DNA of 64,000 nucleotides from Deltaproteobacteria bacterium (lineage in GTDB: Bacteria > Desulfobacterota > JADFVX01): assembly GCA_029860075.1 (NCBI GenBank), contig JAOUBX010000007.1:35355-99354 (forward strand), written 5' to 3'. Below the pieces are notes generated by a model. The model saw nothing but the letters and a program-made list of their open reading frames with translations. It did not search any database and was not told where the DNA came from. The translations under genes were made by a program, and so were the position numbers. Shown in pieces: positions 6,620 to 62,569 of the stretch. Numbering within the stretch: position 1 is the first letter of the stretch; each line of letters begins with the position of its first letter.

Positions 6620-6641
6620 AAAAGTCGGAAACCTGACAGGG

Positions 6642-6672: not shown

Positions 6673-6766
6673 TACGCAGCATTCTTCCCCCTCTTGCAAG
6701 GGGGATTCTTTTTCCTGTCACTTTTACCGGAAAAAAGAGTATTAAAGATATTAAGGAGAGTAAAAA

Positions 6767-46412: not shown

Positions 46413-46430
46413 TTTCACCACCTCCTGAAA

Positions 46431-46613
46431 TTAGGGTTGTTGTTCCTTGGTTGCTTCCTTGATGCTTTCCAGGGTATCATCGACTATACTGAAACTGCTT
46501 TTTACTACCGTATTTAAAACTTCTGTAACACCCTCGGTAAGCTTGCTCGATATAATTTGATTTGCCGTTTCATTGATTACCTTGTTTAATGGTCCCAGCA
46601 GACTTATTGCCAT
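46431..46613 (-). CDS. 60-aa hypothetical helical protein (operon gene 8)
   Basis: SD GGGAGGTGA. Amphipathic sequence with no Cys or His. No recognisable family. Confidence 0.5.
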   Translation of the reverse strand: MAISLLGPLNKVINETANQIISSKLTEGVTEVLNTVVKSSFSIVDDTLESIKEATKEQQP

Positions 46614-46665: not shown

Positions 46666-48126
46666 TTATTGGATAAAAAGATGGCGGGCTGATATACCCT
46701 TTTTCATTGAATGAATTCCAAGATCTGAAGCTTTTGAGATTACATCCATTCCCCAATTGAGATTTTTTGTGGGGTTTTCCATCATTCTGCTAATAATCCT
46801 CGTTAAGTCTATTAATGTCCTTAATCCACTTTTAAGAACCCCGCCGGACCCATTATTTTGGGACTGATTCAACAGTTTAATCCAGAATGCCGGATTGACA
46901 GGAATGGCGTTCACTATGGTTAAGGGTGAGAAGCATGCGCTTGCCGGTGTCACGCCTGTAAATATTCCGCCACACATGTCTCTGAATTCCTTACTGTTTC
47001 TTGTCATCTCACAAATCATTTTCAGTGCAAGAAGGTAGGCTTCTCTTAAATTTGGATTTCTTGCGATACTTAATATGAGACTCCCTGTGAGCCTGTCCAG
47101 TCCTGATATGTCATCCTGGATTTCATTAAAGCTATTTAGGTTTTCAGCGGAAAAGTCATTTCTTTCAAGAGCATTCATGGCGATAAAAGCCGCCAGGTGA
47201 CCACCTTCAAGGGCAATATGAATACCGCCGCCATTTATGGGGTCCGTCATATTTGCCGCATCGCCTATCAAAAGGACCCTTTCTGCGACGGTTTTTTCCA
47301 ATTTAGGAAAACAGGCCCTGCCGCCGCCCAGTTTTTCCGGTTTGGCGTCTTTTTTTAAGCGATGAGACAGATTTTTTGCGACAAAATCGTCAAAAACCTC
47401 TTTAAGATGAGGTTTCATGGGGAAATTGGCGTCATAAACATAGCCGACACCCACATTTGCACGTCCACTGTCGTCGGCAAAAACCCAGCCATAACCGGGG
47501 AAAAAATCTTTATCGAAGTATATCTGGACTTTCGATTTATCTATGATCATGTCGGGGTAATATGCCCTTATGGAAGCGGCAACGGACTCCCCCTTAATAC
47601 TGTTGCCGATCTCCCTGGAAACGACCGAGTTTACACCGTCAGAACCAATAACCATTTTGGCTTCATAGGTGACAGGTGCATTATCTTCAATGGCTTCTAT
47701 GCATATGCGATCCTTTTTGGCAGCAATTTTCTTTACATGGCAGCCTTCTTTAAACGTTACTCCTGATGAAACGGCATTTTTTACCAATATATGGTCAAGC
47801 GTTCTCCGTTCAAGTTGTACGCCGAAACCGGGGAACTTTTCCCCTTCCGGAAAACCGCTGGAAATAACATATTCGCCGTTGACATAAAGGTCACCTGAAT
47901 CGGTATAGCCTTTACATTCATCGAGTACCTCATTAATGCATCCCAGCATATCGATCCAGTAAACGGCTTTAGGGGCCAGAAAGTCACCACAAACCTTATC
48001 TCTGGGGAACCTGGACTTATCGAGTAATAAGACATTTACCCCTTCCCTTGCAAGAAAGGTAGAGGTGCTGCTTCCACCGGGACCGGCACCGACGACTATG
48101 ACGTCATAAAAATTGTTGTTTGCCAT
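46666..48126 (-). CDS. FAD-dependent oxidoreductase, geranylgeranyl-reductase family (operon gene 7)
   Basis: The N-terminal YDVIVVGAGPGGSSTSTFLAREGVNVLLLDKSRFPRDKVCGDFL and the later LIGDAANMTDPINGGGI are typical of the GGR/FixC-type family. At 486 aa it has a C-terminal extension. Confidence 0.7.
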   Translation of the reverse strand: MANNNFYDVIVVGAGPGGSSTSTFLAREGVNVLLLDKSRFPRDKVCGDFLAPKAVYWIDMLGCINEVLDECKGYTDSGDLYVNGEYVISSGFPEGEKFPGFGVQLERRTLDHILVKNAVSSGVTFKEGCHVKKIAAKKDRICIEAIEDNAPVTYEAKMVIGSDGVNSVVSREIGNSIKGESVAASIRAYYPDMIIDKSKVQIYFDKDFFPGYGWVFADDSGRANVGVGYVYDANFPMKPHLKEVFDDFVAKNLSHRLKKDAKPEKLGGGRACFPKLEKTVAERVLLIGDAANMTDPINGGGIHIALEGGHLAAFIAMNALERNDFSAENLNSFNEIQDDISGLDRLTGSLILSIARNPNLREAYLLALKMICEMTRNSKEFRDMCGGIFTGVTPASACFSPLTIVNAIPVNPAFWIKLLNQSQNNGSGGVLKSGLRTLIDLTRIISRMMENPTKNLNWGMDVISKASDLGIHSMKKGISARHLFIQ

Positions 48127-48161: not shown

Positions 48162-48863
48162 CTAAACAGGGGAACTCACAATGATTACCAGGGGTATTTG
48201 ATACTCATCTTCCCCTGAAACGGTGACGAGGCCCCTGTATGCATCAGGCGGTGCATTTTCAGGTATCTTCCCTGAAAATACGAGTTTCTCAAAATCCATC
48301 GGTGCAATGGATATTTTTGATGGATTAATTTTGAAGGACTTTGCATTTATCTGGAAATTAGTTTTATCTCCCACAAAATCAGCGGCAGCCGCAAATTGCA
48401 GTTGTTTTGATCCCTGATGCGTTTCATTATCTATTGAGAAGGAAATCGTTACTTCACCACCGGCAAAGGCAGGCATCCTGTTGCTGACAAGGGGCTGGCT
48501 GTTTTCCGGTTCCTGCCGATGGTTTGGCGGTGCTTCAGGAGGCGCTGTTTGTTCCTGGCTCTGGCCTGTAAATTTTCTGATTAAATCTTCATAGTTTACT
48601 TTTGGGCCTGATGAATCTTCCTGCGTCTGGGTTTTCAATATGTCTGACGCCTTGTCGGAGGCAACGCCTCCAAGTTTGCTAACCAGGTTAACGCCCAGTT
48701 CAAGCCCTGTTTCTACAAGGTCGATCCCTCTGTCAAAAATTACGCCTATTTTGTCAATATTGTCCTTCGATGAATGGTTGCTGGATTGAGACGCTCCTTC
48801 GTCGCCGCCTTTAGAAGAATTTCCGTTCTTTTTTTGAGACTTTTCCGATTCGGTTTTAACCAC
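48162..48863 (-). CDS. Orphan protein: low-complexity N-terminus, Gly/Leu motif, Ig-like C-terminal domain (operon gene 6)
   Basis: GTG start after AGAGGA. GIDLVETGLELGVNLVSKLGG resembles segments in genes 5 and 11. The C-terminal roughly 100 aa look like a CARDB/NEW3-type beta-sandwich (..PDAYRGLVTVSGEDEYQIPLVIIV). Confidence 0.6.
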   Translation of the reverse strand: MVKTESEKSQKKNGNSSKGGDEGASQSSNHSSKDNIDKIGVIFDRGIDLVETGLELGVNLVSKLGGVASDKASDILKTQTQEDSSGPKVNYEDLIRKFTGQSQEQTAPPEAPPNHRQEPENSQPLVSNRMPAFAGGEVTISFSIDNETHQGSKQLQFAAAADFVGDKTNFQINAKSFKINPSKISIAPMDFEKLVFSGKIPENAPPDAYRGLVTVSGEDEYQIPLVIIVSSPV

Positions 48864-48964: not shown

Positions 48965-49279
48965 CTAACAGCAGCAGGAACAGCCGCATCGTTCATGATG
49001 AGGAGGATAGCAGTCGACTGTATAGCAGTGCTGATCACAGCAATGACTGCTGCACCCATGATGACCGTGATGACCGGAGTGATGGTAAGAATGAGACCCG
49101 CCACACCTCGGATCACCCCAGATAGCGCTGTCCACTATATTTTTTACCAAAGAAGACCCACCGTAAATAAAAGACGATGCCAGGCTTGTCAAACCGCCTG
49201 CAATTCCTGCCAGCCCACCTGTTTGTACCGGATAAGGCGAATGGCATGGATGATGACCATGGTAACCATGATAACTCAT
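48965..49279 (-). CDS. 104-aa His/Cys-rich protein with central Gly/Leu segment (operon gene 5)
   Basis: SD GGGGAGGG. There is a 4-nt overlap with gene 4. The sequence runs MSYHGYHGHHPCH...GGLAGIAGGLTSL...HSYHHSGHHGHHGCSSHCCDQHC...CGCSCCC, with about 16 His and 12 Cys by hand count. Confidence 0.65.
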   Translation of the reverse strand: MSYHGYHGHHPCHSPYPVQTGGLAGIAGGLTSLASSFIYGGSSLVKNIVDSAIWGDPRCGGSHSYHHSGHHGHHGCSSHCCDQHCYTVDCYPPHHERCGCSCCC

Positions 49280-49884
49280 TTTGTTCCCTCCCCATGAATT
49301 GTTAAAGCGACCCTGCTTGCATTTCTTGCAAAAGATGAGACTTCACCTGAAGCCATTGATGCCTCTCTGCATTTTGAAGGAATAGCAGGATTTCCTCCTG
49401 TTGCTTCTATGGCATAACTGCGGTTATGCCTTATTTCCTGTTCTTTCCTGTATTTGTCCCGTGGAATCATATGGGTGCTGCCTTTTAACAGTATTCTGAA
49501 TAGTTCCAGACCCAGAAATTTTCCGCTTACCGTATAATTAGAGGGTACGTGAAAGTCCTGGTACGTTCCAACGGAGATTGGCGGCATTCTTCGTACATTC
49601 ATATCAAGCGGCGGAAGTTGCCTTAAAGCCACATTCATGGGGGGAAGGTTGGTCACCTGAAATTTATCGACTTTGATTGGGTCGATATTTCGGACCTGGT
49701 TGACATGAAAGGAATCGATATTGATAGGATCTATGTGATTGATTTCCTTTACGTGATGGGCAACAGGGTCAATATTGCGGACTTCTTTAACATGGAGGTC
49801 TACAGGGTCAATGCCTTTAACCTCCCTTATTTTCAGGTGTACACTTTCGCTATCACTGTCATTTTGTAAATAAACATTACCCAT
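49276..49884 (-). CDS. Orphan repeat protein with about 7 tandem 10-16-aa IDP(V/I)/LPP units (operon gene 4)
   Basis: SD AGAGGGA. Repeats run LKIREVKGIDPVD / LHVKEVRNIDPVA / HHVKEINHIDPIN / IDSFHVNQVRNIDPIK / VDKFQVTNLPPMN / VALRQLPPLD / MNVRRMPPIS. Confidence 0.6.
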   Translation of the reverse strand: MGNVYLQNDSDSESVHLKIREVKGIDPVDLHVKEVRNIDPVAHHVKEINHIDPINIDSFHVNQVRNIDPIKVDKFQVTNLPPMNVALRQLPPLDMNVRRMPPISVGTYQDFHVPSNYTVSGKFLGLELFRILLKGSTHMIPRDKYRKEQEIRHNRSYAIEATGGNPAIPSKCREASMASGEVSSFARNASRVALTIHGEGTK

Positions 49885-49962: not shown

Positions 49963-50682
49963 TTATGCCGGCCACTTATAATTTGCTAAAATTATCTTCG
50001 CTTCATCGCCGGCAGAGGTCCCGTTTAAAGAAACTTCAACAGTAACTACTGTTGTTGCTTCGCTTATGCTGTTTGGTGCGCGGTAAAAACCGCCGTTATC
50101 AATACTTCCCACTACAGGGCTTCTTGTCCAGGTGATATTCGATGATGTGGAATTACTGATAATAGTCCGGAATTGCTGGACCTTATTGCTATTATCTATA
50201 TAGTTATTCTTATGTCCTGTACGGCAATATAAGTGCACGACCTTCGGGAAAATTTCGATAACCGGTTCGGCTTCAGGTTCAGGACCCACACCTACAATGT
50301 TGACGATGGCCGTTGCTTTCCTGGTGGGATCATCAATTGATGTGGCAACAACGATATCCGTCGTATAATTGCCATAATCAGTATCCGCATCATAATCAGG
50401 CGCTATATAAAGACCTGATGAATTGATACTGCCTTCCCCCGGTTCTCCTTTTTCATTAAATACTTCCCACCTGACTCTGTTTGTGGGGGCATTGAATATT
50501 GCCGAATCAAACTGTATCCGCGTATTTACAGGATCAACGTAGCGTTCATTTTTGAAGTAAACTTCTGCATTTTCAGGCCATATCTCGATTTCTATCTGAT
50601 GCTCGCAAATGATGTGATGATGCCTTACATGGGGTAAGCATCTAACCTGATGGTTTCTATGTCTATGCTTATTTAAATACAT
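49963..50682 (-). CDS. Orphan protein: His-rich N-terminus plus two tandem Ig-like repeats (operon gene 3)
   Basis: The N-terminus reads MYLNKHRHRNHQVRCLPHVRHHHIICEH. It is followed by two roughly 95-aa repeats, each starting IEI(W/F)P and containing (W)...G.I...G.Y.AP. No obvious SD. Confidence 0.55.
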   Translation of the reverse strand: MYLNKHRHRNHQVRCLPHVRHHHIICEHQIEIEIWPENAEVYFKNERYVDPVNTRIQFDSAIFNAPTNRVRWEVFNEKGEPGEGSINSSGLYIAPDYDADTDYGNYTTDIVVATSIDDPTRKATAIVNIVGVGPEPEAEPVIEIFPKVVHLYCRTGHKNNYIDNSNKVQQFRTIISNSTSSNITWTRSPVVGSIDNGGFYRAPNSISEATTVVTVEVSLNGTSAGDEAKIILANYKWPA

Positions 50683-50712: not shown

Positions 50713-51132
50713 TTACTCGTCACAGTCGATGAGGCCGAGTTCTATTGACGGCTTTGCTGAAACCTTGCCATTTAATTTGCCTTCCGCCTCTATTTCGGAA
50801 GAGCACTTCATTTGCCCATCCATTTCCCCGCTTATCTCATCTGTTTTGACTGTTCCGCTTAATCTGAAGGAAGCTCTCTTTACTTTCAGATCAAAGGGGC
50901 TGATTCTTGCCTTAAAAGCCCCTACCGATGCAATCAATACGGGCGCGCGTTTTTTTCTGAAAGGGACAGTCATCTTAATGGGGATTTCATCTATAGCAAT
51001 GTTTATTTCACCGACAGTCATGTCGCCGCGGCCGGAAGCAGTGAGGGAGGCTTTGCACTTGAGCGGATCAAGGCGGGTTTTCATTTTGAAAGAGGGGTTG
51101 CTTTTTAGTATTCCTTTAGCTTTAAAATTCAT
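50713..51132 (-). CDS. Basic beta-rich orphan protein (operon gene 2)
   Basis: SD GAGGAG. The start lies 2 nt after the gene 1 stop. 139 aa, ends LIDCDE. No recognisable family. Confidence 0.55.
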   Translation of the reverse strand: MNFKAKGILKSNPSFKMKTRLDPLKCKASLTASGRGDMTVGEINIAIDEIPIKMTVPFRKKRAPVLIASVGAFKARISPFDLKVKRASFRLSGTVKTDEISGEMDGQMKCSSEIEAEGKLNGKVSAKPSIELGLIDCDE

Positions 51133-51134: not shown

Positions 51135-51338
51135 CTACTTCTCCTCACAATCAGAAATTTCACCTTCTTCCCCTTCGGGATAAACACGATCTGCAAGATC
51201 GCCGCACATATCATCGAGGGTGACATTTAAATTTTCGTAGCCTGCCAGGGCTTCATTGAGTTCATTGCAGTTGTCACCTGAAACCTCGAATGAAACGAGC
51301 GGCCCCAGTCTGACTTTAAGTACGATTCTGGACGACAT
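51135..51338 (-). CDS. 67-aa acidic orphan protein (operon gene 1)
   Basis: SD AGAGGGGA. Ends EGEEGEISDCEEK. It is the first gene after the divergent intergenic region. Confidence 0.5.
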   Translation of the reverse strand: MSSRIVLKVRLGPLVSFEVSGDNCNELNEALAGYENLNVTLDDMCGDLADRVYPEGEEGEISDCEEK

Positions 51339-51401
51339 ATAAAGTTCCCCTCTAGTCGATGAAATAATAAAAAAACAAAGTTCTTTCGTAAAATAAGATC
51401 A

Positions 51402-51429
51402 ACTTATATAATTAAAGCAAAATATAAGT
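51402..51429. promoter_or_regulatory. Inverted repeat ACTTATAT-N12-ATATAAGT in the divergent intergenic region (candidate operator)
   Basis: Read directly from the AT-rich 222-bp spacer between the two divergent operons. Confidence 0.3.
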
Positions 51430-51560
51430 CAAGTTATTTTTGAACCAAATGTCAAGGGGCGCAGACTCCTAATGGAATCTGTATAGAAAGTTTACTCCAT
51501 GAAATGGGGGTTGGCAAAAAAAGTTTTTGACCTGAGGAACGAAAAAAATAAAAGCAAGCT

Positions 51561-53309
51561 ATGGTCCAAATTAACGATGTGGATTCCAATAAGATGACCT
51601 TACATTGTCCGGAAAATTGTGCAACTTTAGATAGAGACAGTTATTCTTATTACAACAGTAAGAGAGATCCTCACCCTCCTTCACAGGAAATAGAGATAGT
51701 CAAAACCATATTTCTTAGAGAATACGGGAAAAAGGATCCTCCTTCGGGCAGAATCAGAAGTGGTACCTTTGATGATTTTATGTCTTCTCTGGCAAGTCTG
51801 AAAGCAAAGCATGTAGACACAATCATTCTGCTTCCCCTTCATCCCCTTGGCAAGGCCCTGTGGGGCGCTGTGGCCAGTCCCTATGAACCGATGGATTATT
51901 TTTCAATAGAGCCCTCTCTTGTAAAACATAACTGGGGAGCAGGCACGGCGCGGCTTAAGAGTGAATACAAGCGCTTTAAAAAGAATCATCTCCCCGGAGA
52001 AATGGAGGAATTCAGGCTCTTTAAAAAAAATGTAAGAGTTCTGGAATATGCAAAGTACAATGCAGCAAAACTTATTAGCCGGGAAAAAAACAGGGCATTG
52101 AATGATTTTACTGATTATAAAGATGAGCCTCATTACAAACTGCTTATGGAGGAAACGCTCTTTGAGCAGTTTGTGGCAAGGAAGAAATTCCTTGGTTTTA
52201 TTGAACATGCCCACTGGCTGGGATTGAAGATTATCATGGATATTCCGGGATATTTTGGTACAGACAGTATTGCCGATCTCTTTTATGAAAATTATATCCG
52301 TAAAAATAAAGACGGCACTTATTACCAGCCCGGTTTCGATCAATGGGGGCATGGATGGTATACGCTCAGGCAAATGGAGGTAAATAACTCCAAAGCGCTT
52401 CATTATTTATGTTCCATCTACAGGTATTGGGTTGATGAATTCAAGGTGGACGGCTTCAGGATCGACGCCATACTGACTCAGCCCGATCTTTATGTAAAAG
52501 CTATTCGGCAAGCTGTACCCCATACCTTTCTCCTGGGAGAAACGATAGGAACGTTTAAAGGTGATATTGAAAGGAAGTATATTGATGAGCTTAAGCTCGA
52601 TTCAATCTATAATCCTGAATGGATATGGACAGGTGATATAAAGAAATATCTTGTAAAAGCGCACAAAAGACCTTCCGGCAGGCGATTGTTTCATATGAGG
52701 GATACTCATGACGAAGGGAGGCTCAAAAAGGGAGACCCTTTTTCCATACCTAGAAAGAAGTACCTCTCCCTCCTGGCAATGGCACTCCTGGGACTGCCGG
52801 GGAAAGATATTATCGGTTTTCTCGATGGAAACTTTGATTTGCTGGAAGGGACTCCAGAGCTTCACGAGCTTTATCTGAAAGAGTTTTATGTTGCTGATCA
52901 AAGCAGTATCTGCTTTTCCGATGGGACGGAACTTGGCTCATCAGAGTATATTAAGCGGCTCATATATCTTAGAAAAAAACTTGATCCCCTGAGAAAGAGT
53001 GGTAATATTGTCTTTCTTGAACAATGGAGCAAGCAGATCTCTTCCTATGTGAGAGAAGGGGAAAAGCTTGACGTCATTGTTATAAGCAATGTGGGAGATG
53101 TGAATTTCAGCGGTTCCGTTAAGATCCCGGTAAGGGCCGGTTTTTTTATCGATGAAAATAGGGACATTTGCAAAGATCTCATATCTGGTAAAAGAATAGG
53201 AATTCCTTGCTCCACAGGCAAAGGTATTATATTAACGCTCGATATCGGCCAGTCAGTGGCTTTCTCATTGAAGAAAGGCGATTGCTCTCTTTTGAGAAAG
53301 CAGATTTGA
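51561..53309 (+). CDS. Divergent GH13 (alpha-amylase superfamily)-like protein, cytoplasmic
   Basis: Matches to GH13 conserved regions: region II VDGFRIDAI, region III FLLGETIG, region IV-like MRDTHDE. The region I-like IIMDIPG lacks the usual His. No signal peptide and no clear SD. Confidence 0.55.
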   Translation: MVQINDVDSNKMTLHCPENCATLDRDSYSYYNSKRDPHPPSQEIEIVKTIFLREYGKKDPPSGRIRSGTFDDFMSSLASLKAKHVDTIILLPLHPLGKALWGAVASPYEPMDYFSIEPSLVKHNWGAGTARLKSEYKRFKKNHLPGEMEEFRLFKKNVRVLEYAKYNAAKLISREKNRALNDFTDYKDEPHYKLLMEETLFEQFVARKKFLGFIEHAHWLGLKIIMDIPGYFGTDSIADLFYENYIRKNKDGTYYQPGFDQWGHGWYTLRQMEVNNSKALHYLCSIYRYWVDEFKVDGFRIDAILTQPDLYVKAIRQAVPHTFLLGETIGTFKGDIERKYIDELKLDSIYNPEWIWTGDIKKYLVKAHKRPSGRRLFHMRDTHDEGRLKKGDPFSIPRKKYLSLLAMALLGLPGKDIIGFLDGNFDLLEGTPELHELYLKEFYVADQSSICFSDGTELGSSEYIKRLIYLRKKLDPLRKSGNIVFLEQWSKQISSYVREGEKLDVIVISNVGDVNFSGSVKIPVRAGFFIDENRDICKDLISGKRIGIPCSTGKGIILTLDIGQSVAFSLKKGDCSLLRKQI

Positions 53310-53355
53310 CCGGTATTGTGTCAGAAATCTGAAAAAATGGTGTGCTAATCCTGAA

Positions 53356-54288
53356 ATGATTGATATTGATGATTTTATAAAGAATGACAAAGGGCAGCAG
53401 GAAATCGATCATTGCCTGAAGAGGCTTCGTGATAAAGCTGATGAAGTTTTACGGCCTCTTGCCACAAGCTATTATCCGGCCATGATAGCCCATGATCATG
53501 CCAGTGAATTCAACAAAATGCGTGAGCTCAGCACCAAAATGATGCTTGTGGGGCAGGCATGTGCAGAGATTGCCGGATATGAATTTAATGATAAGCTCAT
53601 TATGTTAAGTGCGCTTTTCGGCGGTTGCTGCTTTCTGGGTGATAGCTTTATCGATGATTATGACGATGAAGAAACACTGGATTATATAAACAGGCTGGAG
53701 CGGCTCCTTACAAAAGGGTGGTTTGAAATAAGTGATGACCGGGAAAAACTCTTTTATGTTATCGTGACAAGGCTTTTTTCTGAATGTGATGTTTTTGAAG
53801 AGAAAACACGGCAGGCCATTTTCGGACAGTTTCTGGCCCAGAAAAGGGATGCTTTATGGAGGCTGGACCATACAGAACTTATGTCCTTATCTCATGATGA
53901 GAAAATCGACGCCCTTCTCCAGTGCGCCAATGACCGGGGTGGATATGTGACTCTCGTACTTTCACTTGTCCTTACTGAGGAGCTTTCTCTGCATTATCAG
54001 CATATTCTCTATCTGGCCGGTAAGCTTTTTATGCATATCGATGACCACGGCGATCACCATCAGGATAAATACAACAAAAGATTTACCTATATGAACAGTA
54101 TCGATAATCCGGCTGATAAACTGGAAAAACTTTTCAATAATATTGTTTCAAAGATCAAGTCGGACTTGCCAGAAAATGGCGGACGTGATATTTTAACAAA
54201 CTTTTTGACACGCTATTATCACACACGCTTAAAAAAACATATTTTGGAGCAAAACAGGGGAAGCAGCAGGTGGGTAATTTATGAATGA
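53356..54288 (+). CDS. All-alpha protein with two DDxxD motifs (isoprenoid synthase / ComQ-like fold candidate)
   Basis: FLGDSFIDDYDDEE at about residue 95 and MHIDDHGDHHQD at about residue 228. The spacing of about 130 aa resembles the FARM/SARM spacing of trans-isoprenyl diphosphate synthases. Confidence 0.4.
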   Translation: MIDIDDFIKNDKGQQEIDHCLKRLRDKADEVLRPLATSYYPAMIAHDHASEFNKMRELSTKMMLVGQACAEIAGYEFNDKLIMLSALFGGCCFLGDSFIDDYDDEETLDYINRLERLLTKGWFEISDDREKLFYVIVTRLFSECDVFEEKTRQAIFGQFLAQKRDALWRLDHTELMSLSHDEKIDALLQCANDRGGYVTLVLSLVLTEELSLHYQHILYLAGKLFMHIDDHGDHHQDKYNKRFTYMNSIDNPADKLEKLFNNIVSKIKSDLPENGGRDILTNFLTRYYHTRLKKHILEQNRGSSRWVIYE

Positions 54289-54874
54289 CTATTCCCATAA
54301 TTACAGGAAGTTATTCGATCGTTTTTCTATAGAACTTCAGTCAATTTATAAAAGGCCATCTGAAAAAGAAAAGGCTCCCCTATTTAATATCAGTTGTGAA
54401 AATGAAGCGGCAAAGGCCCCATTTCAATATGACTCGGCAAATGCCGTTCTTCACAGGACAGGCTGTAAATATATTGATGGAAAATACAACCTTTCTATTT
54501 TTGCCCTGTGGGAAATCAACGAGGAAGACCTCGCTTTTGCCTGTAAAAAATGTAAGCCTCATTTAACCGGAGGAGAGGGTTTGGAAAAAGATCCAGTTTC
54601 AGATATGATGTACGGTATTTTTTCTCTCATCGACCAGTTTGGCTCGGTCCTTATAGAAAGAGGGAAAGAGTATAAAAAAACAGGCAGCGGTAAAAAGCTT
54701 GCCCATTCATTAGGCGCTAATCTCAGTGAACAGCAGGAAAAGCTCCTCGATAAATCCATATCCAGCCTTGACTTGCTCATTAATTCTCTTCATCAGCTCA
54801 ATATGCAGCTGGAAAGCGGGGAGAAGAGAGACAAAAAAGAAGAAAACCATGGTAATTCGGAAAGCGCCAGGTGA
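54281..54874 (+). CDS. Hypothetical protein with H..C...C..C Zn-ribbon-like motif and coiled-coil C-terminus
   Basis: HRTGCKYI...ACKKCKP. It has an 8-nt overlap with the upstream gene and a 4-nt overlap with the downstream gene. Confidence 0.45.
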   Translation: MNDYSHNYRKLFDRFSIELQSIYKRPSEKEKAPLFNISCENEAAKAPFQYDSANAVLHRTGCKYIDGKYNLSIFALWEINEEDLAFACKKCKPHLTGGEGLEKDPVSDMMYGIFSLIDQFGSVLIERGKEYKKTGSGKKLAHSLGANLSEQQEKLLDKSISSLDLLINSLHQLNMQLESGEKRDKKEENHGNSESAR

Positions 54875-55776
54875 GTTCCCATCACTTTACAAGCCGGTAC
54901 AGAAAGAATCTCGACTGGCTGCAAAGCAAGGCAGTTAGTGACCTAAACTATGATATACAGGGGACTTTTTTAACGCTGGAGGTCGATGATAAGGAGCTTC
55001 TGAGCTTGCTGGCAGAGCGTTATGGTTGTTTTTTTTACGGGGAAAAAGTTTCTTCCTCGCGCAGAATCAAAATTAAGAAAAACAAGAGACACTTCATTTT
55101 TACAGATTCCCAGGGGAAATCGTTTCCTTGCCGTCATATGGGTGAAGTACTTTATCCATACCTGGCCCACACTTTCGATGAAATATATGAAGCTCTGGCA
55201 GGCCATTTAGTCTTTCATGGTTCAGCTTTTTCAACAGATGCCGGTGGTATATTGATATTGGGGAGAGCGGGAGCAGGGAAGACCAGCCTCCTCCTGGAAA
55301 TGATTAAAAGGGGTTTTTCTTATATCTCCGATGATGTTTCAATCGTGGATATTTCAGGGAGAAAGGAGTTAATCCCAAATCCACAGGGCTTTAAATTGAG
55401 AGAGCCGCTGTTAAGCTGTCAGGGTGTTGAAAGGTCAGGTTTTAAGGGTAAATATATTAATCCATGTAATATTGATAATTTGGATATTTCATCGACATGC
55501 CCCTTGTTGGCAGTCATATTGCTGGCTGATGAAAAGGGTAATGGTTACGCCGGTCGTCCTGCTTATTTTGGTGATTATGCAGAACCTTTAAGTAAATTGA
55601 TTATTCCCCCTTCAGCAAGAAAGTCTTCTTTAGGGACAATTAGCGCCCTTTTTGATAAAATACCACTTATAGTCATGAATTCCTCAAAAGAAATAGCTGT
55701 TGAGAAAAAAGCTCAAAATATTCTGGACCGGCTTGATCTCAATCACAAAGGTAATTCCACATTAAAAGCAGGGTGA
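54871..55776 (+). CDS. HPr-kinase-C-terminal-like P-loop protein (HprK-related kinase)
   Basis: FHGSAFSTDAGGILILGRAGAGKTSLLLEMIKRGFSYISDDVSIVD matches the HG..V...G.GVLI.G.SG.GKS......L...G..L..DD pattern. Confidence 0.55.
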   Translation: MSSHHFTSRYRKNLDWLQSKAVSDLNYDIQGTFLTLEVDDKELLSLLAERYGCFFYGEKVSSSRRIKIKKNKRHFIFTDSQGKSFPCRHMGEVLYPYLAHTFDEIYEALAGHLVFHGSAFSTDAGGILILGRAGAGKTSLLLEMIKRGFSYISDDVSIVDISGRKELIPNPQGFKLREPLLSCQGVERSGFKGKYINPCNIDNLDISSTCPLLAVILLADEKGNGYAGRPAYFGDYAEPLSKLIIPPSARKSSLGTISALFDKIPLIVMNSSKEIAVEKKAQNILDRLDLNHKGNSTLKAG

Positions 55777-55783
55777 TAGTGCA

Positions 55784-57577
55784 ATGGTGAAAAGCAGAGG
55801 CAAGCTGTCCATCAAGTATGTAGGCGGTCTTCTTTTAAAGCGAAATTTTATTACAGAAGAGCAGCACAGGGAGCTTCAGCTTCACGGGGAGGCACAACGG
55901 GCAAGGCTCAAAAAAGCGAGAGATTCAGCTTCAAAAAGCAAGATATCTCATCTCGATGACAGCATATCAGCGCCTGAGGTGATCGCTTCTTATGAAATCG
56001 AGATTCCCGGTAAAAAGGGGAAAACCCTTACGGAAGATACTATTACGGAAGTAATCGCCGATGAAGTGGGACTGAGCTACCTGAAAATCGATCCGCTCGA
56101 ACTCGATATGGATACGGTCACTTCTCATATTTCCCAGCCTTTTGCAAGAAGGCACCTTGTTGTGCCTGTTACTGAAAAAAGAGGGGTCGTTACGGTAGCC
56201 GTGGCAGACCCCTTCGAGCTTGAGTCTGTGGAAGAACTGCAAAGGGCCAAAAAGCTGAAGCTCAATATCGTCATGAGTTCAAAAAGCGATATTGTCAAAA
56301 TACTGAAAGAATTTTATGGATTCAGTTCCTCCGTTATTGCCGCACAGAAGGAGAGAACGGAGGGTTTCGATATAGGAAACCTCGAACAGTTTGTACAGTT
56401 AAAATCCCACTCTGAAATCGATGCCTCGGACCAGCATATCGTCAATGCTGTTGAATATCTTATGCAGTACGCTTTTGACCAGAGGGCAAGTGATATCCAT
56501 ATCGAGCCAAAAAGGGAAAAAACGAACGTCAGGCTGAGAATAGACGGTGTTCTTCACGAAATCTATTCCATACCAAAAGCAATTCACCCCCCCATTATTT
56601 CAAGAATAAAAATGCTTTCCCGTATGGATATTGCTGAAAAAAGGCGGCCCCAGGACGGGAGGATCAAAACCAATTATAAAGATAAGGATATTGAACTTCG
56701 TGTTTCCACCATGCCTGTCGCTTTCGGCGAAAAGGTAGTTATCAGGATTTTTGATCCCGACGTGCTTTTGCAGGACCTTGAAGAACTCGGTTTTTATCCC
56801 CGTGAATTCGAGTTTTTTAAATCATTCATTAATAAGCCCAACGGTATTATCCTCGTGACGGGGCCCACGGGAAGCGGTAAAACGACAACCCTCTATTCGG
56901 CCCTTAATGCCCTGGCCTCTCCCGATATTAACATTATAACCGTTGAAGACCCTATCGAAATGGTGATGGACCAGTTCAACCAGGTGGGACTTCAAACGGC
57001 CATCGGCGTTACTTTCGGAAATGCGCTGAGAACCATACTGAGGCAGGACCCGGACATTATAATGGTCGGTGAGATAAGGGACAAGGAAGCGGCGGAAAAT
57101 GCCGTTCAGGCAGCGCTTACAGGTCACCTTGTTCTTTCCACGCTCCATACCAATGACGCCCCTTCATCCATTACAAGACTTATCGATCTCGGAATACCTT
57201 CCTTTCTTATTTCTTCAACAGTAATAGGCGTCATTGCCCAGAGGCTGGTTCGAAGGATCTGTCATGAATGTAAAAGGGAAAGAGAACTTACTCACGAGGA
57301 AAGGGCTCATCTCGAACTATCAGGAAAAGATATCACTGTTTATTTCGGAGAGGGTTGCAAGGACTGCAGGGGAACGGGCTACAGGGGGAGAGACGGTGTC
57401 TTTGAAGTGATGGAGATATCTGAATCTGTAAAAGAAGTTATGACTGACAAGGTAAGCCTGGCTGCTCTTAAGGAGGTAGTGAAAAGTGACGGTATCCTTA
57501 CGGTCAGGGAGTGTGCCGTAAGAAAAATGCTTGAAGGGGTGACTACCTACGAAGAGGTGGTAAGGATTACGGGGTAG
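55784..57577 (+). CDS. GspE/PilB-family secretion ATPase with MshEN-like N-terminal domain
   Basis: Walker A GPTGSGKTTT, Asp boxes, Walker B IMVGEIRD, His box TGHLVLSTLHTN and a tetracysteine motif (CHEC...CKDC). The N-terminal GGLLLKRNFITEEQHRELQ is MshEN-like. Confidence 0.8.
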   Translation: MVKSRGKLSIKYVGGLLLKRNFITEEQHRELQLHGEAQRARLKKARDSASKSKISHLDDSISAPEVIASYEIEIPGKKGKTLTEDTITEVIADEVGLSYLKIDPLELDMDTVTSHISQPFARRHLVVPVTEKRGVVTVAVADPFELESVEELQRAKKLKLNIVMSSKSDIVKILKEFYGFSSSVIAAQKERTEGFDIGNLEQFVQLKSHSEIDASDQHIVNAVEYLMQYAFDQRASDIHIEPKREKTNVRLRIDGVLHEIYSIPKAIHPPIISRIKMLSRMDIAEKRRPQDGRIKTNYKDKDIELRVSTMPVAFGEKVVIRIFDPDVLLQDLEELGFYPREFEFFKSFINKPNGIILVTGPTGSGKTTTLYSALNALASPDINIITVEDPIEMVMDQFNQVGLQTAIGVTFGNALRTILRQDPDIIMVGEIRDKEAAENAVQAALTGHLVLSTLHTNDAPSSITRLIDLGIPSFLISSTVIGVIAQRLVRRICHECKRERELTHEERAHLELSGKDITVYFGEGCKDCRGTGYRGRDGVFEVMEISESVKEVMTDKVSLAALKEVVKSDGILTVRECAVRKMLEGVTTYEEVVRITG

Positions 57578-57660
57578 TTTTTGCCGTACTTTTTCATCTC
57601 GCGCAGAGGCGCAGAGAAAATTAATCACAGAAGGGTGGGGAAATCACGGAAATGTTTTTT

Positions 57661-57746
57661 GACAGGATTAACAGGATTAACAGGATTTAAGGGATGAAAA
57701 GGATTCAACGATTTTAAACTTGCAACCCGCAACCTGTAACCCGTAA
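57661..57746. repeat. Short periodic repeats: 9-bp (gacaggatta)x3 then 7-bp (caaccyg/taacccg)x3
   Basis: gacaggattaacaggattaacaggattt, then gcaacccgcaacctgtaacccgtaac. The 9-bp units belong to the same family as those at 10.7, 11.9, 17.1-17.4 and 62.8 kb. Confidence 0.75.
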
Positions 57747-57756
57747 CAATCTTTCA

Positions 57757-58239
57757 CTACCCTCTTTTATAGGCCAGGTCGATCTCATTTTTAATTTCAT
57801 GAAGAAACTCATCAACAGTAAGGTTCCCGGCGCTTAAAAAAGGCGATATCAAAACAGGGGGGCTTTTCAATTTGGGAATAAAGACTAAAAAGGAAGGGGT
57901 GCCTCTAAGGCGATATTTATTAAAGAGGATTCTTTCAGCCTCTCCTTTGTCGGTGTTTATTTCCACTTTTAGAATATTTCTTAAAAATTCCTCCCCTTTT
58001 TCAGTGGCGAGATAATTATTTTCCAGCTTTTTACACCATGAGCAGGAGCTTGCGTGGAAGTAGACAATCAAAGGGCTTTCCTTCGCCTCAGCCTTTTTAA
58101 GGGCCAGCTCATAGCCCGGGGCGCCATGCTCCCAATGAGGGAAAGTATAGGCGGGTACAGAATGGTCGAAAAGGGATTTGAGAATTAATGAACACAAAGC
58201 AAGGGCAAAGAATGCGGGAATAATTTTTTTTGATTTCAT
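57757..58239 (-). CDS. Secreted thioredoxin-fold protein (CxxC = CSWC)
   Basis: It has a signal peptide. PLIVYFHASSCSWCKKLE, and later GTPSFLVF (cis-Pro region), are typical of the thioredoxin/DUF255-like fold. Confidence 0.65.
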   Translation of the reverse strand: MKSKKIIPAFFALALCSLILKSLFDHSVPAYTFPHWEHGAPGYELALKKAEAKESPLIVYFHASSCSWCKKLENNYLATEKGEEFLRNILKVEINTDKGEAERILFNKYRLRGTPSFLVFIPKLKSPPVLISPFLSAGNLTVDEFLHEIKNEIDLAYKRG

Positions 58240-58374
58240 GGTTGGCTGCTTCCTTTTTTTAACCTGGCATTATCAGGATTGATTAAGGGTAACCTTACCA
58301 TACAGGAAAGTTTTTGTTAGATGGTGATTAATCTTAAAGGGTTCAAATGATGTCTTGATTAAAAGAGAATTTTT

Positions 58375-58600
58375 CGCGCAGAGCCGCCAGGAGCGCAGAG
58401 AAAATCTATTAAGTATTTCAAACAAATGCCACTTCAGCGATCAGGAGAAATCTTGAATTTTCATTTCCTGACAGGAACCACAGGGTTAAAGATTTTTGTT
58501 TTGGACTTTAGAGTCATTAACCCTTGAATAAGCCCCTATCCTTGAAATCAGTGGAAATCCGCTAAATCCGTGTCATCCGTGTTCTATAGCTCCTCTCTGT
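58375..58600. repeat. Patchwork of short intergenic repeat motifs
   Basis: Three motifs recur elsewhere. gcgcagagccgcc..gcgcagagaaaat also occurs at 57598-57625. cagcgatcaggagaaatcttgaa also occurs at 62766-62790. gaaatcagtggaaatccgctaaatccgtgtcatccgtgtt is of the same type. Confidence 0.6.
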
Positions 58601-58722
58601 GCGAAACCAATCTCTCAATCCGCATTCCGCTTCAAGAAGGCTTCTTCCCTTTTTTAAAAGGACAAGATCGAGGTTGTTGAATTTTCCACCGACCGACTTT
58701 TGATATTTAAACCTGGAAAGAG

Positions 58723-58909
58723 CAGTTGGATCCAGTAGTGTCCGGTTAGAAAATTGCAGAAATTTAAAACCCCCTCCCTTTCAAGGGGAGGGGATGGGTT
58801 AACATGGAAATGGTATCAAAAAAAATAACCCATCCCCCTCCTGACCTCCCCCTTGAAGGGGGAGGAACAGCGGTGCAAATTCCTAACCGGACAATACTGA
58901 GTTGGATCA
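58723..58909. repeat. About 187-bp nested palindromic element (MITE-like or structured RNA)
   Basis: The outer arms are cagttggatcc.gta.tgtccggttagaaaattgca and tgcaaattcctaaccggaca.tac.gagttggatca. Inner pairing joins gggatgggttaa to ttaacccatccc. Two C/G hairpins are present (cccctccc..ggggagggg and cctccccc..gggggagg). Confidence 0.7.
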
Positions 58910-59371
58910 TGGTTTCTACAAATTCTAAGGTTAAGCGTTATAAAACAAGCGAGACAATATCAATAACCTGATATCTCTCCTGGCCGGCATTAAAATACTT
59001 GGGATAGAGTCAACAAAAGAGCTTTTTACCTTCTAAAAATATAAAAATTCCACCCCAAAACCAAAGTTACCATCTATTTTAAGGAGCGCAAATTTTTTAT
59101 TAATAATCAGGATCGGCAGGTATCGAAAAAATATTTATAAAAACTTGCATGTGGAAAAACAGATGCTAGAGTTAATCTAGGGGTGGGGATCCCTTTCTTC
59201 TTTGTTTTGTCATAAAAACACCACACTTCTTTAATAAGAGAGAACGTACAGTCACTATCCGGACAATTTTAATATCCGCAAGAGAATCATCATTATTGAA
59301 TATTATCATAATAATTTAAACCAAACTGTCAGTCTTTGAGAAAAGTAACTTTATCAAGAAAGGACGTAGAA

Positions 59372-62300
59372 ATGGCTGCTATCAATAATAGGATAAATTT
59401 TTTAAAAGTATCAGCGCTTATCTTGTTTACGGGTCTCTTTGCTTTACTTGCCACAGGGGCAGCAGACGCTGCTGAAGTTTTCAGAACCAAGTTTAAGGCA
59501 GGTTCAGCCTATCTGATCGTTGAGATTCTTGATGATGACCTGGCTCATTTTGAACTCTCAGCTATAGGCGATGGCCCATCAACGAATGACTCACTTTATA
59601 CGTCGCCAATGGTCCTAAAGACTGATTACAAAGGAGCTGCAACTGTATCTCAAAACAATAACATTATAGAAACCAGTGAGATACGCCTTGAAATTGACAA
59701 AAGCAATCTTTGCATCAAGCTGATTGATAAAAGTAAGGGTAATTCTCGTCTAACGACGGTTTGTCCCGTTGATCTATCGATGGGATTGAAAGGGATAAAT
59801 ATTGAACCGGGACAAATACAGAATATCTATGGCCTGGGTCAGGAATTTAAGCGCTTAGGCTCATCAGATGGCGACTGGATTAAATTGGGAGTACGTCAGG
59901 GAATGAGTCGAAAGAGCAATCAACAGGTGGGTTTTGAACAAGCTCCCCCGGGGCAACAATTTTTTGTAGATGCAGGAAACGGTTTCCAGGGCTTCCAACA
60001 AGCGGCTGTGGGTAACGTGCAAATTCCAGTGTATTATGCTGTCGGTGCGAATAATCTCAACTATGCTCTATTTATGGATAATATCTACTGGCAGAGGTGG
60101 GATTTTAAAAAAAATTGGTGGCAGGCCCGGATGTATGGAGATCAACTGCGTTTTTACTTTATGACCGGTCAGGATTTACCTGATCTGAGGTCGGACTTTA
60201 TGGAATTGACGGGCACGCCGCCAATTCCTTCACGGAAATCATTCGGTATGTGGGTATCCGAATTTGGCTATGACAATTGGGATCAGGTCGATATTCTTAA
60301 AAAAACTTTGAGAGATGATAAATTCCCATTAGATGGTTTTGTCCTTGATTTGAATTGGTTTGGCGGCATAAGTCCGAAAACCAACATGGGGCGCCTTAAT
60401 TGGGATCAGGATCAGGATGCCTTAGTGAAGAATAACGGGTACTTTTTTCCAAAACCAAGTGAAAAAATTAAAAAATACGCTGAAGATAATATTCGTATCG
60501 CCGCAATTGAAGAATCCTATTTAGCCAGGACAGAGCCTCTTCTTGATACCTTTAAAAATATACCAAAGAACTTTATGGCCTACCAGCGAAACGGCAACAG
60601 CTGTAACTCAACCATTGAGGAACCCGTATTTATTAATGCAGCGGACTTCTGGGGCGAAGGCTGGATGTTTGACTGGTCTGAGCCGGCACTCGGCCAATGG
60701 ATTCACAATAACCGTCGCTTCCCGGAACTGGTAAAAAGAGGAATCCATACTCATTGGACTGATCTGGGAGAACCCGAGCGTTTTGAGCCATCTGCCTGCT
60801 ACGAGGGGGTAGAGACTACTGTTTCCGGCAAAAAGAACGAACATACGGATATCCATAACATATACAATCTGCTCTGGAATAAATCTATTTGGGACGGCTA
60901 CGTTGAAAAGCAGGGGCAGGCGGATGAACTGGGCATAATCAATCCGCGCCCTTTGATTCTGACCCGTTCAGGGGCCGCTGGAACTCAGCGATACGGCGCA
61001 GCAATGTGGTCCGGGGATATTGCCTCTAGCCTGGAGTCTCTTGCCACGCATTCAAACGTACAGATGCATATGTCCTTTTCCGGCATTGACTATTACGGTG
61101 CAGATATTGGAGGTTTTCGCCGCGAAGTACTTCCAGGCAACAAAAAAGAGGGCCCCTTTAACACAAGTTATCAAGATGAGATGTATACTCAGTGGTTTGC
61201 CAACGGAAGCTGGTTCGACATCCCCGTCCGTCCTCACACCGATAACGAATTCGGGGAGAACCGAAACAGCTGTAAGAATAATTTCGCCAACAGAAAGCCA
61301 CCCTGCTACGAAACAGCGCCAAATCTTGTAGGCAAGCCTGATAGTAATTTAGCCAATATCCGTCAACGGTACGAATTGATTCCCTACTATTACTCCCTTG
61401 CTTATCGAGCCTATCTTCAGGGAGAACCTGTAATACCACCCCCTGTATTTTACTATCAGAACGACTCTAACTTGAGAGAGATGGGGCATGAAAAGATGAT
61501 TGGCAGAGATATTCTGGTCGGAATTGTCGCTAAACATGGTGAGTATGAGCGCAATGTTTATCTGCCGAAGGGTAGATGGGTAAATTATCATTCTAATGAG
61601 TGGGTTGACAGTTCGGGAGAGGAGATAAAGAATGCACCTCTTTATCGGGAAGGAATTTTGCGGTTGCCGGCCTTTGTACGTGCCGGAGCTATCCTTCCCC
61701 AGATGTTTGTTGATGAAAACACTAAGGATGCCTTTGGCCATCGGCTTGACGGAACTGCAGCTCATAATGAATTGATTGTTCGCGTCTATACTGATGAAAG
61801 GCCATCGACTTTCACATTGTACGAGGATGATGGATTAACCCTGAATTATAAGGAAAGCGGGCGGCCAGGCTATCACTACAGAACAACTGTCCTCAAGCAG
61901 CAAAAGAATAATGACACTGTAACCGTTACTATCGACCCGGCTGTTAACAAGAACGGTGACGACGAGGTGGCAAAGTCCTTTAATGGAGCTGTCAGCAGCC
62001 GGGCAAATATTGTTAAATTGATTGTCAACAATGCCGAGGCAAAAGCAGTCAAAATTAACAATACGCCACTGACTAAATATACATCTCAAGAAAATTTCGA
62101 TACCGCTGAAAGTGGTTGGTACAATGCTGCCAACAACCTGATTGTGGCAAAATCGGGCAAAATGGATGTCAACAGTACCATTAAAGTTTTTTCTTTTCAG
62201 CTAAGATCTGTTCCGGCAAAAACATCGGTCAACTTTGTCTGTGACAATGGTTTTACAACTCCCGGCGAGAGTATCTATGTTACAGGCAGTATTGAAGCCT

Positions 62301-62569
62301 TAGGTAATTGGAACCCGGATAAAGCGGTTAAGCTTGATCCAAATATCTACTACGAATACATCCTACGAGCGGATAAAAAGCTTCCTGGTCCTACGAAACC
62401 AGTCTGGACAAGTGTAATTAATAACCTGCCGCCTAATACTACCTTCGAGTGGAAATGTATACGGCGACATGAAAACGATGCGAACCAGGTTCAGTGGCAG
62501 CCGGGGGACAACAATAAGAAAACTACTGTTACTCATGGCTACGCGGGAAAGAGTTACGGTACCTTTTAA
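59372..62569 (+). CDS. Secreted GH31-family glycosidase/transglycosylase with C-terminal CBM20 starch-binding domain
   Basis: Signal peptide ...ALLATGAADA. GH31-like regions are present (DGFVLDLNWFGG, HWTDLGEPE, AAMWSGDIAS). The C-terminal VNFVCDNGFTTPGESIYVTGSIEALGNWNP...W...F.WKCIRR is CBM20-like. Confidence 0.7.
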   Translation: MAAINNRINFLKVSALILFTGLFALLATGAADAAEVFRTKFKAGSAYLIVEILDDDLAHFELSAIGDGPSTNDSLYTSPMVLKTDYKGAATVSQNNNIIETSEIRLEIDKSNLCIKLIDKSKGNSRLTTVCPVDLSMGLKGINIEPGQIQNIYGLGQEFKRLGSSDGDWIKLGVRQGMSRKSNQQVGFEQAPPGQQFFVDAGNGFQGFQQAAVGNVQIPVYYAVGANNLNYALFMDNIYWQRWDFKKNWWQARMYGDQLRFYFMTGQDLPDLRSDFMELTGTPPIPSRKSFGMWVSEFGYDNWDQVDILKKTLRDDKFPLDGFVLDLNWFGGISPKTNMGRLNWDQDQDALVKNNGYFFPKPSEKIKKYAEDNIRIAAIEESYLARTEPLLDTFKNIPKNFMAYQRNGNSCNSTIEEPVFINAADFWGEGWMFDWSEPALGQWIHNNRRFPELVKRGIHTHWTDLGEPERFEPSACYEGVETTVSGKKNEHTDIHNIYNLLWNKSIWDGYVEKQGQADELGIINPRPLILTRSGAAGTQRYGAAMWSGDIASSLESLATHSNVQMHMSFSGIDYYGADIGGFRREVLPGNKKEGPFNTSYQDEMYTQWFANGSWFDIPVRPHTDNEFGENRNSCKNNFANRKPPCYETAPNLVGKPDSNLANIRQRYELIPYYYSLAYRAYLQGEPVIPPPVFYYQNDSNLREMGHEKMIGRDILVGIVAKHGEYERNVYLPKGRWVNYHSNEWVDSSGEEIKNAPLYREGILRLPAFVRAGAILPQMFVDENTKDAFGHRLDGTAAHNELIVRVYTDERPSTFTLYEDDGLTLNYKESGRPGYHYRTTVLKQQKNNDTVTVTIDPAVNKNGDDEVAKSFNGAVSSRANIVKLIVNNAEAKAVKINNTPLTKYTSQENFDTAESGWYNAANNLIVAKSGKMDVNSTIKVFSFQLRSVPAKTSVNFVCDNGFTTPGESIYVTGSIEALGNWNPDKAVKLDPNIYYEYILRADKKLPGPTKPVWTSVINNLPPNTTFEWKCIRRHENDANQVQWQPGDNNKKTTVTHGYAGKSYGTF

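Follow-up and report, generated by a model that had tools for sequence, protein, structure and literature searches.

We found that a string of five genes (G1–G5) on the plus strand of a 64,000-nucleotide stretch of a Deltaproteobacteria bacterium contig (JAOUBX010000007.1, positions 35,355 to 99,354; hereafter the window) is not a single pathway of five activities, as an initial annotation had it. The real unit consists of G2 and G3 together with the 11 minus-strand genes that diverge from the string (the His/Cys operon), and elsewhere these genes lie colinearly in an operon of about 13 genes. In the window lineage this operon has become divided into two divergent halves, and three genes have been added to the half that carries G2 and G3. 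The G1–G5 string is a composite: G2 and G3 belong to the core, G1 and G4 are accessories that recur, and G5 was recruited in this lineage only. The best explanation of the locus as a whole, which we put at somewhat better than even, is a split isoprenoid-linked gene cluster that acts on metal-binding proteins rich in His and Cys.

An alignment of G2 was scanned against one genome per species and returned 59 loci in about ten phyla. These include Nitrospirota, Nitrospinota, 'Deltaproteobacteria', Alpha-, Beta- and Gammaproteobacteria, Acidobacteriota, Verrucomicrobia, Actinomycetota, Methylomirabilis, Calditrichota, Chloroflexota and others. Every window protein encoded between 42.9 and 62.6 kb served as a tblastn query against the 59 loci. 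We observed that elsewhere G2 and G3 immediately precede the His/Cys genes, with all of them in one orientation and in the order seen in the window, the usual arrangement being G2-G3-V-W-Z-Y-(HC4)-X-GGR-(sm)-HC3-HC2-HC1, where GGR stands for a flavoenzyme of the geranylgeranyl reductase family and the other symbols are those of Table 1. G3 is present in 57 of the 59 loci, directly after G2, and V, W, Z, Y, X and the flavoenzyme gene were each recovered in 46 to 56. Most absences concern loci cut by contig ends, and tblastn undercounts HC1 and HC4, which are of low complexity. No conserved gene lies upstream of G2 in the 59 loci, and G2 therefore normally opens a single operon of about 13 genes. 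A tblastn search for G2 in plasmids gave no match.

The other three genes of the string behave differently. G4 and G5 were found by tblastn in none of the 59 loci, 10-kb flanks included, and the same search gave no clear counterpart of G1, with one weak match only; a hidden Markov model (HMM) of the G4 subfamily likewise retrieved nothing from them. Since G1, G4 and G5 are missing from the 59 loci, conserved synteny does not extend to the string of five as a whole. The expectation that all five would accompany the 11-gene operon elsewhere was strongly borne out for G2 and G3 and failed for G1, G4 and G5. The proposal that the two divergent units make up one locus was upheld by the co-directional joining of G2–G3 to the His/Cys genes in 59 genomes.

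Within the window lineage, G1–G5 is inherited as a unit. A close relative, L060, keeps the string facing the same His/Cys operon in the same split layout, with identities to the window proteins of 67% (G1), 84% (G2), 77% (G3), 67% (G4) and 89% (G5). The flanks differ in L060, with a peptidase M50 gene and a cupredoxin gene on one side and other genes past G5; the string is kept despite this, and the arrangement is therefore conserved and not accidental. A search of metagenome contigs for G4 added a single fragment (L066), which carries G1–G4. In a groundwater 'Deltaproteobacteria' metagenome-assembled genome (L001), G2 and G3 stand alone: a partial upstream gene and two downstream genes have no cluster counterpart, and the remaining cluster genes were not found within 9 kb downstream of the pair. 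From their sequences, the two downstream genes read as RNase III-like and radical-SAM-like. The occurrence of G2–G3 without the other cluster genes therefore marks the pair as a separable module.

The five plus-strand open reading frames (ORFs) were confirmed at the positions in Table 1 with spacings of +46, -8, -4 and +7 nt, and an independent gene caller run on the source contig gave an identical gene set. Their divergence from the His/Cys operon across an AT-rich spacer was also confirmed. A consensus scan of this spacer found sigma-70-like hexamers on the minus strand only, which is a weak indication. A recent inversion or a mobile-element origin of the split was considered and rejected; inverted repeats flanking G1–G5 were sought and gave chance-level matches only.

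Table 1. Features of the locus and its flanks (window coordinates; locus counts refer to the 59 loci).
Feature	Position	Strand	Size	Remarks
Phosphoglucomutase	42873-44312	+		left side of locus
HC1	44618-45259	-		His/Cys-rich; C-terminus CC
HC2	45294-45917	-		His/Cys-rich; C-terminus ARVRWCEVFSC
HC3	45957-46421	-		His/Cys-rich; C-terminal domain ending RLRWCE..C
sm	46431-46613	-	60 aa	20 loci
FAD flavoenzyme (GGR)	46666-48126	-		geranylgeranyl-reductase family; 46/59 loci
X	48162-48863	-	233 aa	47/59 loci
HC4	48965-49279	-	104 aa	His/Cys-rich, C-terminal CCC; at least 7 loci by tblastn (low complexity)
Y	49276-49884	-	202 aa	short V/I..IDP repeats; 50/59 loci; no match of profile to PDB sequences
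Z	49963-50682	-	239 aa	53/59 loci; no match of profile to PDB sequences
W	50713-51132	-	139 aa	52/59 loci; weak Pfam Bactofilin match, E 0.014, below threshold
V	51135-51338	-	67 aa	acidic; elsewhere cluster gene 3, directly after G3, 56/59 loci
Divergent spacer	51339-51560		222 bp	31.5% GC against 45.6% for the window; parts G1-G5 from the His/Cys operon
G1	51561-53309	+	582 aa	
G2	53356-54288	+	310 aa	
G3	54281-54874	+	197 aa	
G4	54871-55776	+	301 aa	GTG start
G5	55784-57577	+	597 aa	
Terminator-like hairpin	57557-57587	+		overlaps G5 stop codon; consensus scan
Thioredoxin-like gene	57757-58239	-		right flank of G5
Gene-poor intergenic region	58240-59335		1.1 kb	38% GC; between the divergent thioredoxin-like and GH31 genes
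GH31 enzyme	59336-62569	+	1077 aa	C-terminal CBM20 starch-binding domain; right side of locus

G2 has 135 homologues at 41–84% identity, none of which carries a Pfam domain or a functional name given by its source. The two Asp-rich motifs that had been read in its sequence are real and conserved: GxCCFLxDSFxDD and IDDxGDxxxD...N, about 130 residues apart, are invariant in 30 aligned homologues (D96, S97, F98, D100 and D101; D229, D230, D233, D237 and N247). An AlphaFold2 model built from the 30-sequence alignment reached a predicted local distance difference test (pLDDT) of 92.2 and a predicted template-modelling score (pTM) of 0.91. When this model was compared with the PDB by Foldseek, all 50 matches listed were terpene synthases, polyprenyl synthases or CrtM (TM-score 0.5–0.6, probability 1.00). 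G2 is thus predicted, on the strength of its model, to have the all-alpha class I terpenoid-synthase/prenyltransferase fold. It shares this predicted fold and the two Asp-rich motifs with class I terpenoid synthases and trans-prenyltransferases such as the bacterial diterpene synthase Sat1646 (7e4n), GGPP synthases and the dehydrosqualene synthase CrtM, but it falls outside all Pfam and NCBIfam terpene or prenyl families and has an extra invariant CC pair before motif 1. The peptide prenyltransferase ComQ may be a further comparison for G2. Weak direct DNA repeats 381–387 nt apart (53649-53667/54036-54054 and 53733-53770/54114-54151) connect the two Asp-rich motifs, which would fit an ancient duplication within the helical fold. 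In contrast to the layout of a typical terpenoid biosynthetic cluster, G2 is paired with a zinc-site protein and with His/Cys-rich, non-enzymatic proteins; the locus does not fit a conventional terpenoid gene cluster, and this reading was set aside.

The partner of G2, G3, had been called a Zn-ribbon protein. This call stands as far as conserved His-Cys3 ligands are concerned (H58, C62, C88 and C91, at least 97% conserved in 58 homologues), but their spacing, H-x3-C...C-x2-C, is unlike the classic CxxC...CxxC. We regard the four residues as a putative zinc site. A downstream motif, D..G..S...QF..VL.ERG, is conserved too. Profile searches with G3 found no match in Pfam, NCBIfam or the PDB sequences, and an AlphaFold2 model from three homologues (pLDDT 40.8) was unusable for fold assignment.

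Among the minus-strand genes, the flavin adenine dinucleotide (FAD) flavoenzyme has the clearest family assignment. It scores 200.6 bits against the cut-off of 158.8 of the geranylgeranyl reductase model TIGR02032 and has the Pfam GGR_cat domain, with secondary matches to QhpG (E 2.3e-21, 76 bits) and LodB (E 6.2e-15). Compared with the geranylgeranyl reductases (archaeal DGGGPL reductase, ChlP/BchP and MenJ), it passes the TIGR02032 cut-off and has their catalytic domain, but it lies below every equivalog cut-off, has about 150 extra C-terminal residues and is dispensable in some clusters. Its gene is tandemly duplicated in three loci (L003, L038 and L048) and is absent from the cluster in L061, as in L060.

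The His/Cys-rich proteins contain 6–24% His plus Cys and conserved CxxC...CxC motifs and, on reading their sequences, no obvious signal peptides. Across loci L002 to L059, 86 of 99 His/Cys-rich ORFs have a C-terminal Cys, and each family has its own tail: ARVRWCEVFSC in HC2, ARLRWCE..CC in HC3 and ..NCC in HC1. In HC2, invariance is complete at R197, R199, W200, C201 and E202 and nearly complete at the terminal Cys, and the N-terminal motif reads FCxxCxHP...CxCG.R.CRKE.KEL. Profiles of HC2 and HC3 gave nothing significant against the PDB sequences, and the other core proteins beyond G2 and the flavoenzyme have no relatives in Pfam, NCBIfam or the PDB sequences. Encapsulin, microcompartment, gas-vesicle and magnetosome readings were dropped because Pfam showed no shell or marker family. 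Genes for cupredoxins (blue-copper proteins) adjoin the cluster in L060 (2137-2499, minus strand), and in seven Nitrospirota loci they are found about 2 kb ahead of G2, for example in L014 (7845-8279, plus strand); these neighbours may hint at a copper link.

G4 had been described as an HprK-like kinase, and its Pfam Hpr_kinase_C score of 34.8 bits (cut-off 33.3) agrees with this. The match to the HprK/P equivalog TIGR00679 (38.8 bits against 240) covers about 60 residues around the P-loop, where a Walker A motif, GRAGAGKT, begins at residue 131 with an SDD downstream. Scores against HprK_rel_A, HprK_rel_B and ScmC are 22 to 26.6 bits (cut-off 200), that against FomB is below cut-off too, and relatives of G4 also match HprK_rel_A, HprK_rel_B and ScmC below threshold. 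The suggested link between HprK-like kinases and peptide maturation is a fair lead given these sub-threshold matches, but no lasso-type genes are present. The lasso-peptide reading was rejected, as the genes between 44.6 and 62.6 kb include no precursor, B protease or C lactam synthetase, and no radical SAM/SPASM-type peptide-modification neighbours of G4 occur in the window.

A HMMER search of 1.84 billion representative sequences returned two further relatives of G4 at E≤1e-30, with 36% and 34% identity, and beyond these about 1,100 distant HprK-like proteins. The relative in L068 immediately follows the G3 of a G2–G3 pair whose G2 is 57% identical. The one in L067, a 12.6-kb Logan contig (SRR31131357), immediately follows a canonical polyprenyl synthase (PF00348). 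This contig has HC2-like, HC1-like, X-like, polyprenyl synthase and G4-like kinase genes in that order; on the opposite strand are genes for IspH/LytB, an ArsA/Get3-like ATPase with an HSP20-like domain and a GGR-like flavoenzyme, followed by an S8 peptidase, a glycosyltransferase and a B12-radical SAM gene. No G2 or G3 was found in the visible part of the contig. In all three known contexts (the window lineage, L067 and L068), the G4 subfamily thus sits in a version of this cluster. G4 is a rare accessory from a very small HprK-like subfamily known only with this cluster type. Like HPr kinase/phosphorylase, TIGR04352, TIGR04355, ScmC and the phosphonate monophosphate kinase FomB, G4 has the HprK C-terminal P-loop domain, Walker A and SDD; unlike them, it scores far below the respective cut-offs, has no radical-SAM or lasso partner genes and has its only close relatives next to G3 or a polyprenyl synthase.

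The label GH13-like given to G1 holds at the level of the alpha-amylase clan (GH-H), but G1 stays below the Pfam cut-off for glycoside hydrolase family 13 (GH13; Alpha-amylase, PF00128, 20.3 bits against 22). It barely passes that for GH77 (PF02446, 27 bits against 25), in a match limited to profile positions 11–117 of 465, and NCBIfam GH77 subfamily models give 21 bits where 555 are required. The best match among PDB sequences is the GH13 alpha-amylase AmyB (4gkl, E 1.1e-10), which aligns via region II. G1 has the clan's GFRID nucleophile motif (region II), a GE..G motif (GETIG) and THD, from which a putative catalytic Glu and second Asp are assigned by motif. Its region I is DIPGYF, which lacks the Asn-His of the GH13 form DxxxNH and which we take to be GH77-like rather than GH13-like. 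On these motifs, G1 is predicted to be a divergent TIM-barrel enzyme of the alpha-amylase clan.

Glycosidase genes recur beside the cluster in other phyla as well. A GH13 gene adjoins it in at least ten other loci from five phyla. It comes right after the last His/Cys gene in L007, L008, L014, L016, L022, L044, L047, L049 and L056; in L027 it lies at 5957-7561 on the minus strand, divergently abutting G2, and in L008 a GH13 gene precedes a relocated G2 by 15 nt, both genes having one orientation. A downstream GH13 gene is present in 8 of the 34 loci with sufficient downstream sequence. These neighbouring genes are cyclomaltodextrinase/MalZ-like, with scores below curated cut-offs, and in L047 a GH31 gene also lies upstream of G2. 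G1 is the counterpart in this lineage of the glycosidase that accompanies the cluster as a recurrent accessory in other phyla. In the window, the phosphoglucomutase and GH31-CBM20 genes bracket the locus and place an alpha-glucan theme around G1; phosphoglucomutase flanks the locus in L060 too.

G5 is a full-length T2SSE ATPase (PF00437, E 5.5e-127) of the hexameric secretion type, in agreement with its annotation as a GspE/PilB-like ATPase, and both Walker A and tetra-Cys motifs occur in it. Its best NCBIfam model is TfpB (683.5 against a cut-off of 850), followed by PilB (553.7 against 675.65) and GspE (538.7 against 630.25). The Pfam MshEN match (E 4e-16) covers residues 96–181 only. The MshEN receptor for cyclic di-GMP has two tandem 24-residue RLGxx..Q motifs (PMC5013675), and neither a strict nor a relaxed pattern of this binding motif was matched in G5. 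Control of G5 by cyclic di-GMP was rejected because the binding motif is absent. G5 thus shares an N1E-type domain, Walker A and the tetra-Cys motif with the extension ATPases TfpB, PilB and GspE and is, like TfpB, encoded apart from pilC and pilD; it differs from all three in lying below every equivalog cut-off, in lacking the cyclic di-GMP motif and in its place inside a non-pilus locus beside a kinase gene.

As the initial annotation had noted, G5 has no secretion partners nearby: none of the scanned ORFs (about 12.7–63 kb, including about 20 kb around G5) encodes a platform protein (PilC/GspF), a pilin or a secretin, and a type II secretion or type IV pilus locus was discarded as a reading. 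A further T2SSE-family ATPase gene, PilT-like, lies at 27541-28698 (plus strand, 385 aa) between recA (26466-27485) and alaS (29139-31784), and no other pilus genes are near it. This genome scatters secretion and pilus ATPase genes among housekeeping genes. G5 is found only in this lineage and is the least securely linked of the five.

We infer that the function of the cluster is an isoprenoid-linked handling of metal-binding proteins. The isoprenoid theme is drawn from three independent lines: the fold and Asp-rich motifs of G2, the GGR-family flavoenzyme and the company of the L067 kinase (polyprenyl synthase, IspH and GGR). In the mechanism that we propose, G2 would bind a prenyl diphosphate via its two Asp-rich Mg2+ motifs and transfer or convert the isoprenoid chain, with G3 as its obligate partner through the zinc site, and the flavoenzyme would saturate that chain. 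The cytoplasmic and presumably metal-binding His/Cys-rich proteins with their C-terminal Cys would either carry the isoprenoid as an attachment or be assembled with it. G4 may supply or regulate a phosphorylated substrate, either a prenyl phosphate or a cluster protein; G1 may work on an alpha-glucan or glucoside associated with the product; and G5 may power assembly or may merely be co-transcribed. The 222-bp spacer would be a control region common to both halves. A more specific form of this mechanism is a bacterial protein lipidation in which G2 and G3 prenylate the C-terminal Cys (-CC, -SC or RWCE), the flavoenzyme saturates the prenyl group and G4 regenerates the prenyl diphosphate, giving a lipid-anchored metal-binding assembly. 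We give this version a slim chance; if true, it would be an analogue of eukaryotic Rab/CaaX prenylation built from unrelated parts.

Several observations weigh against the isoprenoid-linked cluster. G2 matches no Pfam or NCBIfam family (PF00348, PF00494 and PF03936 included), and an hhalign comparison of its profile with a bona fide polyprenyl synthase (a PF00348 member) gave a probability of 0.4, that is, no signal. The GGR family includes protein-modifying enzymes (QhpG and LodB), and the GGR gene is missing in L006 and L060 and survives only as a short piece in L005, so that reduction is either not required or provided by another part of the genome. The HC2 and HC1 homologues of L067 have no terminal Cys. 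G1 is not demonstrably orthologous to the neighbouring GH13 enzymes, the sole link being a weak match to the one in L027 (E 3e-5). G5 has no support beyond this lineage, and orphan PilB paralogues such as TfpB of Acinetobacter baylyi are already documented as stand-alone genes (PMC8213720).

The last two points bear on whether G1 and G5 are simply chance neighbours on the strand of G2–G4, G1 serving ordinary alpha-glucan metabolism and G5 being a dispersed paralogue of a type IV pilus motor. The nearby phosphoglucomutase and GH31-CBM20 genes fit such a role for G1. For G5, the stand-alone motor TfpB is the best model, a PilT-like ATPase gene is likewise stranded between recA and alaS, and the GC content of 46% is like that of housekeeping genes (48% in the housekeeping region) and not like the 40–42% of G1–G4. 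Against chance stand the 7-nt gap between G4 and G5, which is a 7-nt overlap in L060, the persistence of G1–G5 together despite differing flanks and the alpha-amylase-family genes beside the cluster in five phyla. We consider chance association unlikely. A self-contained five-gene operon for one novel pathway, perhaps of peptide maturation and export, is very improbable. Its tight spacings and overlaps, its retention in close relatives and the sub-threshold resemblance of G4 to the peptide-cassette kinases HprK_rel_A, HprK_rel_B and ScmC would suit it, but synteny has largely refuted it, G1, G4 and G5 being missing from the 59 loci while G2–G3 travel with the His/Cys genes. The scanned genes also include no precursor peptide, lasso B or C enzyme, transporter, platform, pilin or secretin.

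Two further readings were weighed. HprK-like kinases of related cassettes act on peptides, and the cluster might serve a maturation of protein cofactors or cross-links instead of an isoprenoid pathway. The Trp-Cys of R.RWCE would then be the target of the flavoenzyme, which would resemble LodB, GoxB or QhpG in its action and would hydroxylate the Trp or cross-link it to the Cys; G4 would phosphorylate proteins and G2 would have a non-prenyl role. The matches to QhpG and LodB and the adjacent, invariant Trp and Cys of HC2 and HC3 are in line with this, but the GGR model is the best and the only one over its cut-off (200.6 against 76 bits for QhpG), the Asp-rich motifs of G2 fit diphosphate/Mg2+ chemistry, and a polyprenyl synthase and IspH accompany the L067 kinase. 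This leaves it quite unlikely. The operon might also encode a metallothionein-like cytoplasmic assembly for metal storage or detoxification to which the enzymes are peripheral, a reading suggested by the His and Cys content, the CxxC...CxC motifs, the lack of obvious signal peptides and the cupredoxin genes that abut the cluster in L060 and in Nitrospira loci. It leaves unexplained why an enzyme of terpene-synthase fold, with invariant motifs of a catalytic type, is the most conserved gene of the cluster, and we see little chance that it is the whole answer; it is compatible with the isoprenoid-linked cluster and can be combined with it. An anti-phage defence role was rejected because PADLOC gave only generic P-loop or GlgB similarity.

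A literature search found no description of the cluster, the gene combination or the invariant motifs. We rate the underlying system as outside the known kinds, with a function that we infer. The unnamed cluster spans nitrifiers (Nitrospira and Nitrospinota), Methylomirabilis and the sulfate-reducing seep bacterium SeepSRB2, as well as many soil Alpha-, Beta- and Gammaproteobacteria, Acidobacteriota and Actinomycetota. Of its about 13 core proteins, nine fall outside all domain families and none is related to a solved structure, and its best-conserved gene, G2, would escape current sequence-based genome mining for terpenes. The chemistry could reveal a new class of terpenoid enzymes, a new protein modification or a new intracellular metal-binding assembly. 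The window lineage offers extra experimental handles, since G2 and G3 share their string there with a kinase, an ATPase and a glycosidase, and culturable carriers of the cluster include Caulobacter sp. BK020, Paraburkholderia panacisoli DCY113 and Nitrospira sp. T9.

The description of the right boundary as repeat-rich DNA (57.6–59.3 kb) was overstated: the right flank of G5 has only three short tandem arrays, at 57601-57747. The gene-poor region further right contains a 26-nt imperfect inverted repeat (58733-58758/58874-58899) and a strong terminator-like hairpin at 58769-58795, and an Rfam scan of the entire window, this region included, gave zero matches. Elsewhere in the window, a plus-strand gene at 12732-15878 encodes a 1048-aa protein with a zinc-dependent phospholipase C domain and an InlB B-repeat and sits in a low-GC stretch (36–45% GC at 10–18 kb). 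Another plus-strand gene, at 33409-34374, encodes a 321-aa protein with a short N-terminal COX1-like segment and two DUF1858 domains and adjoins tatC and a gene for a Mrp/NUBPL-type Fe-S ATPase.

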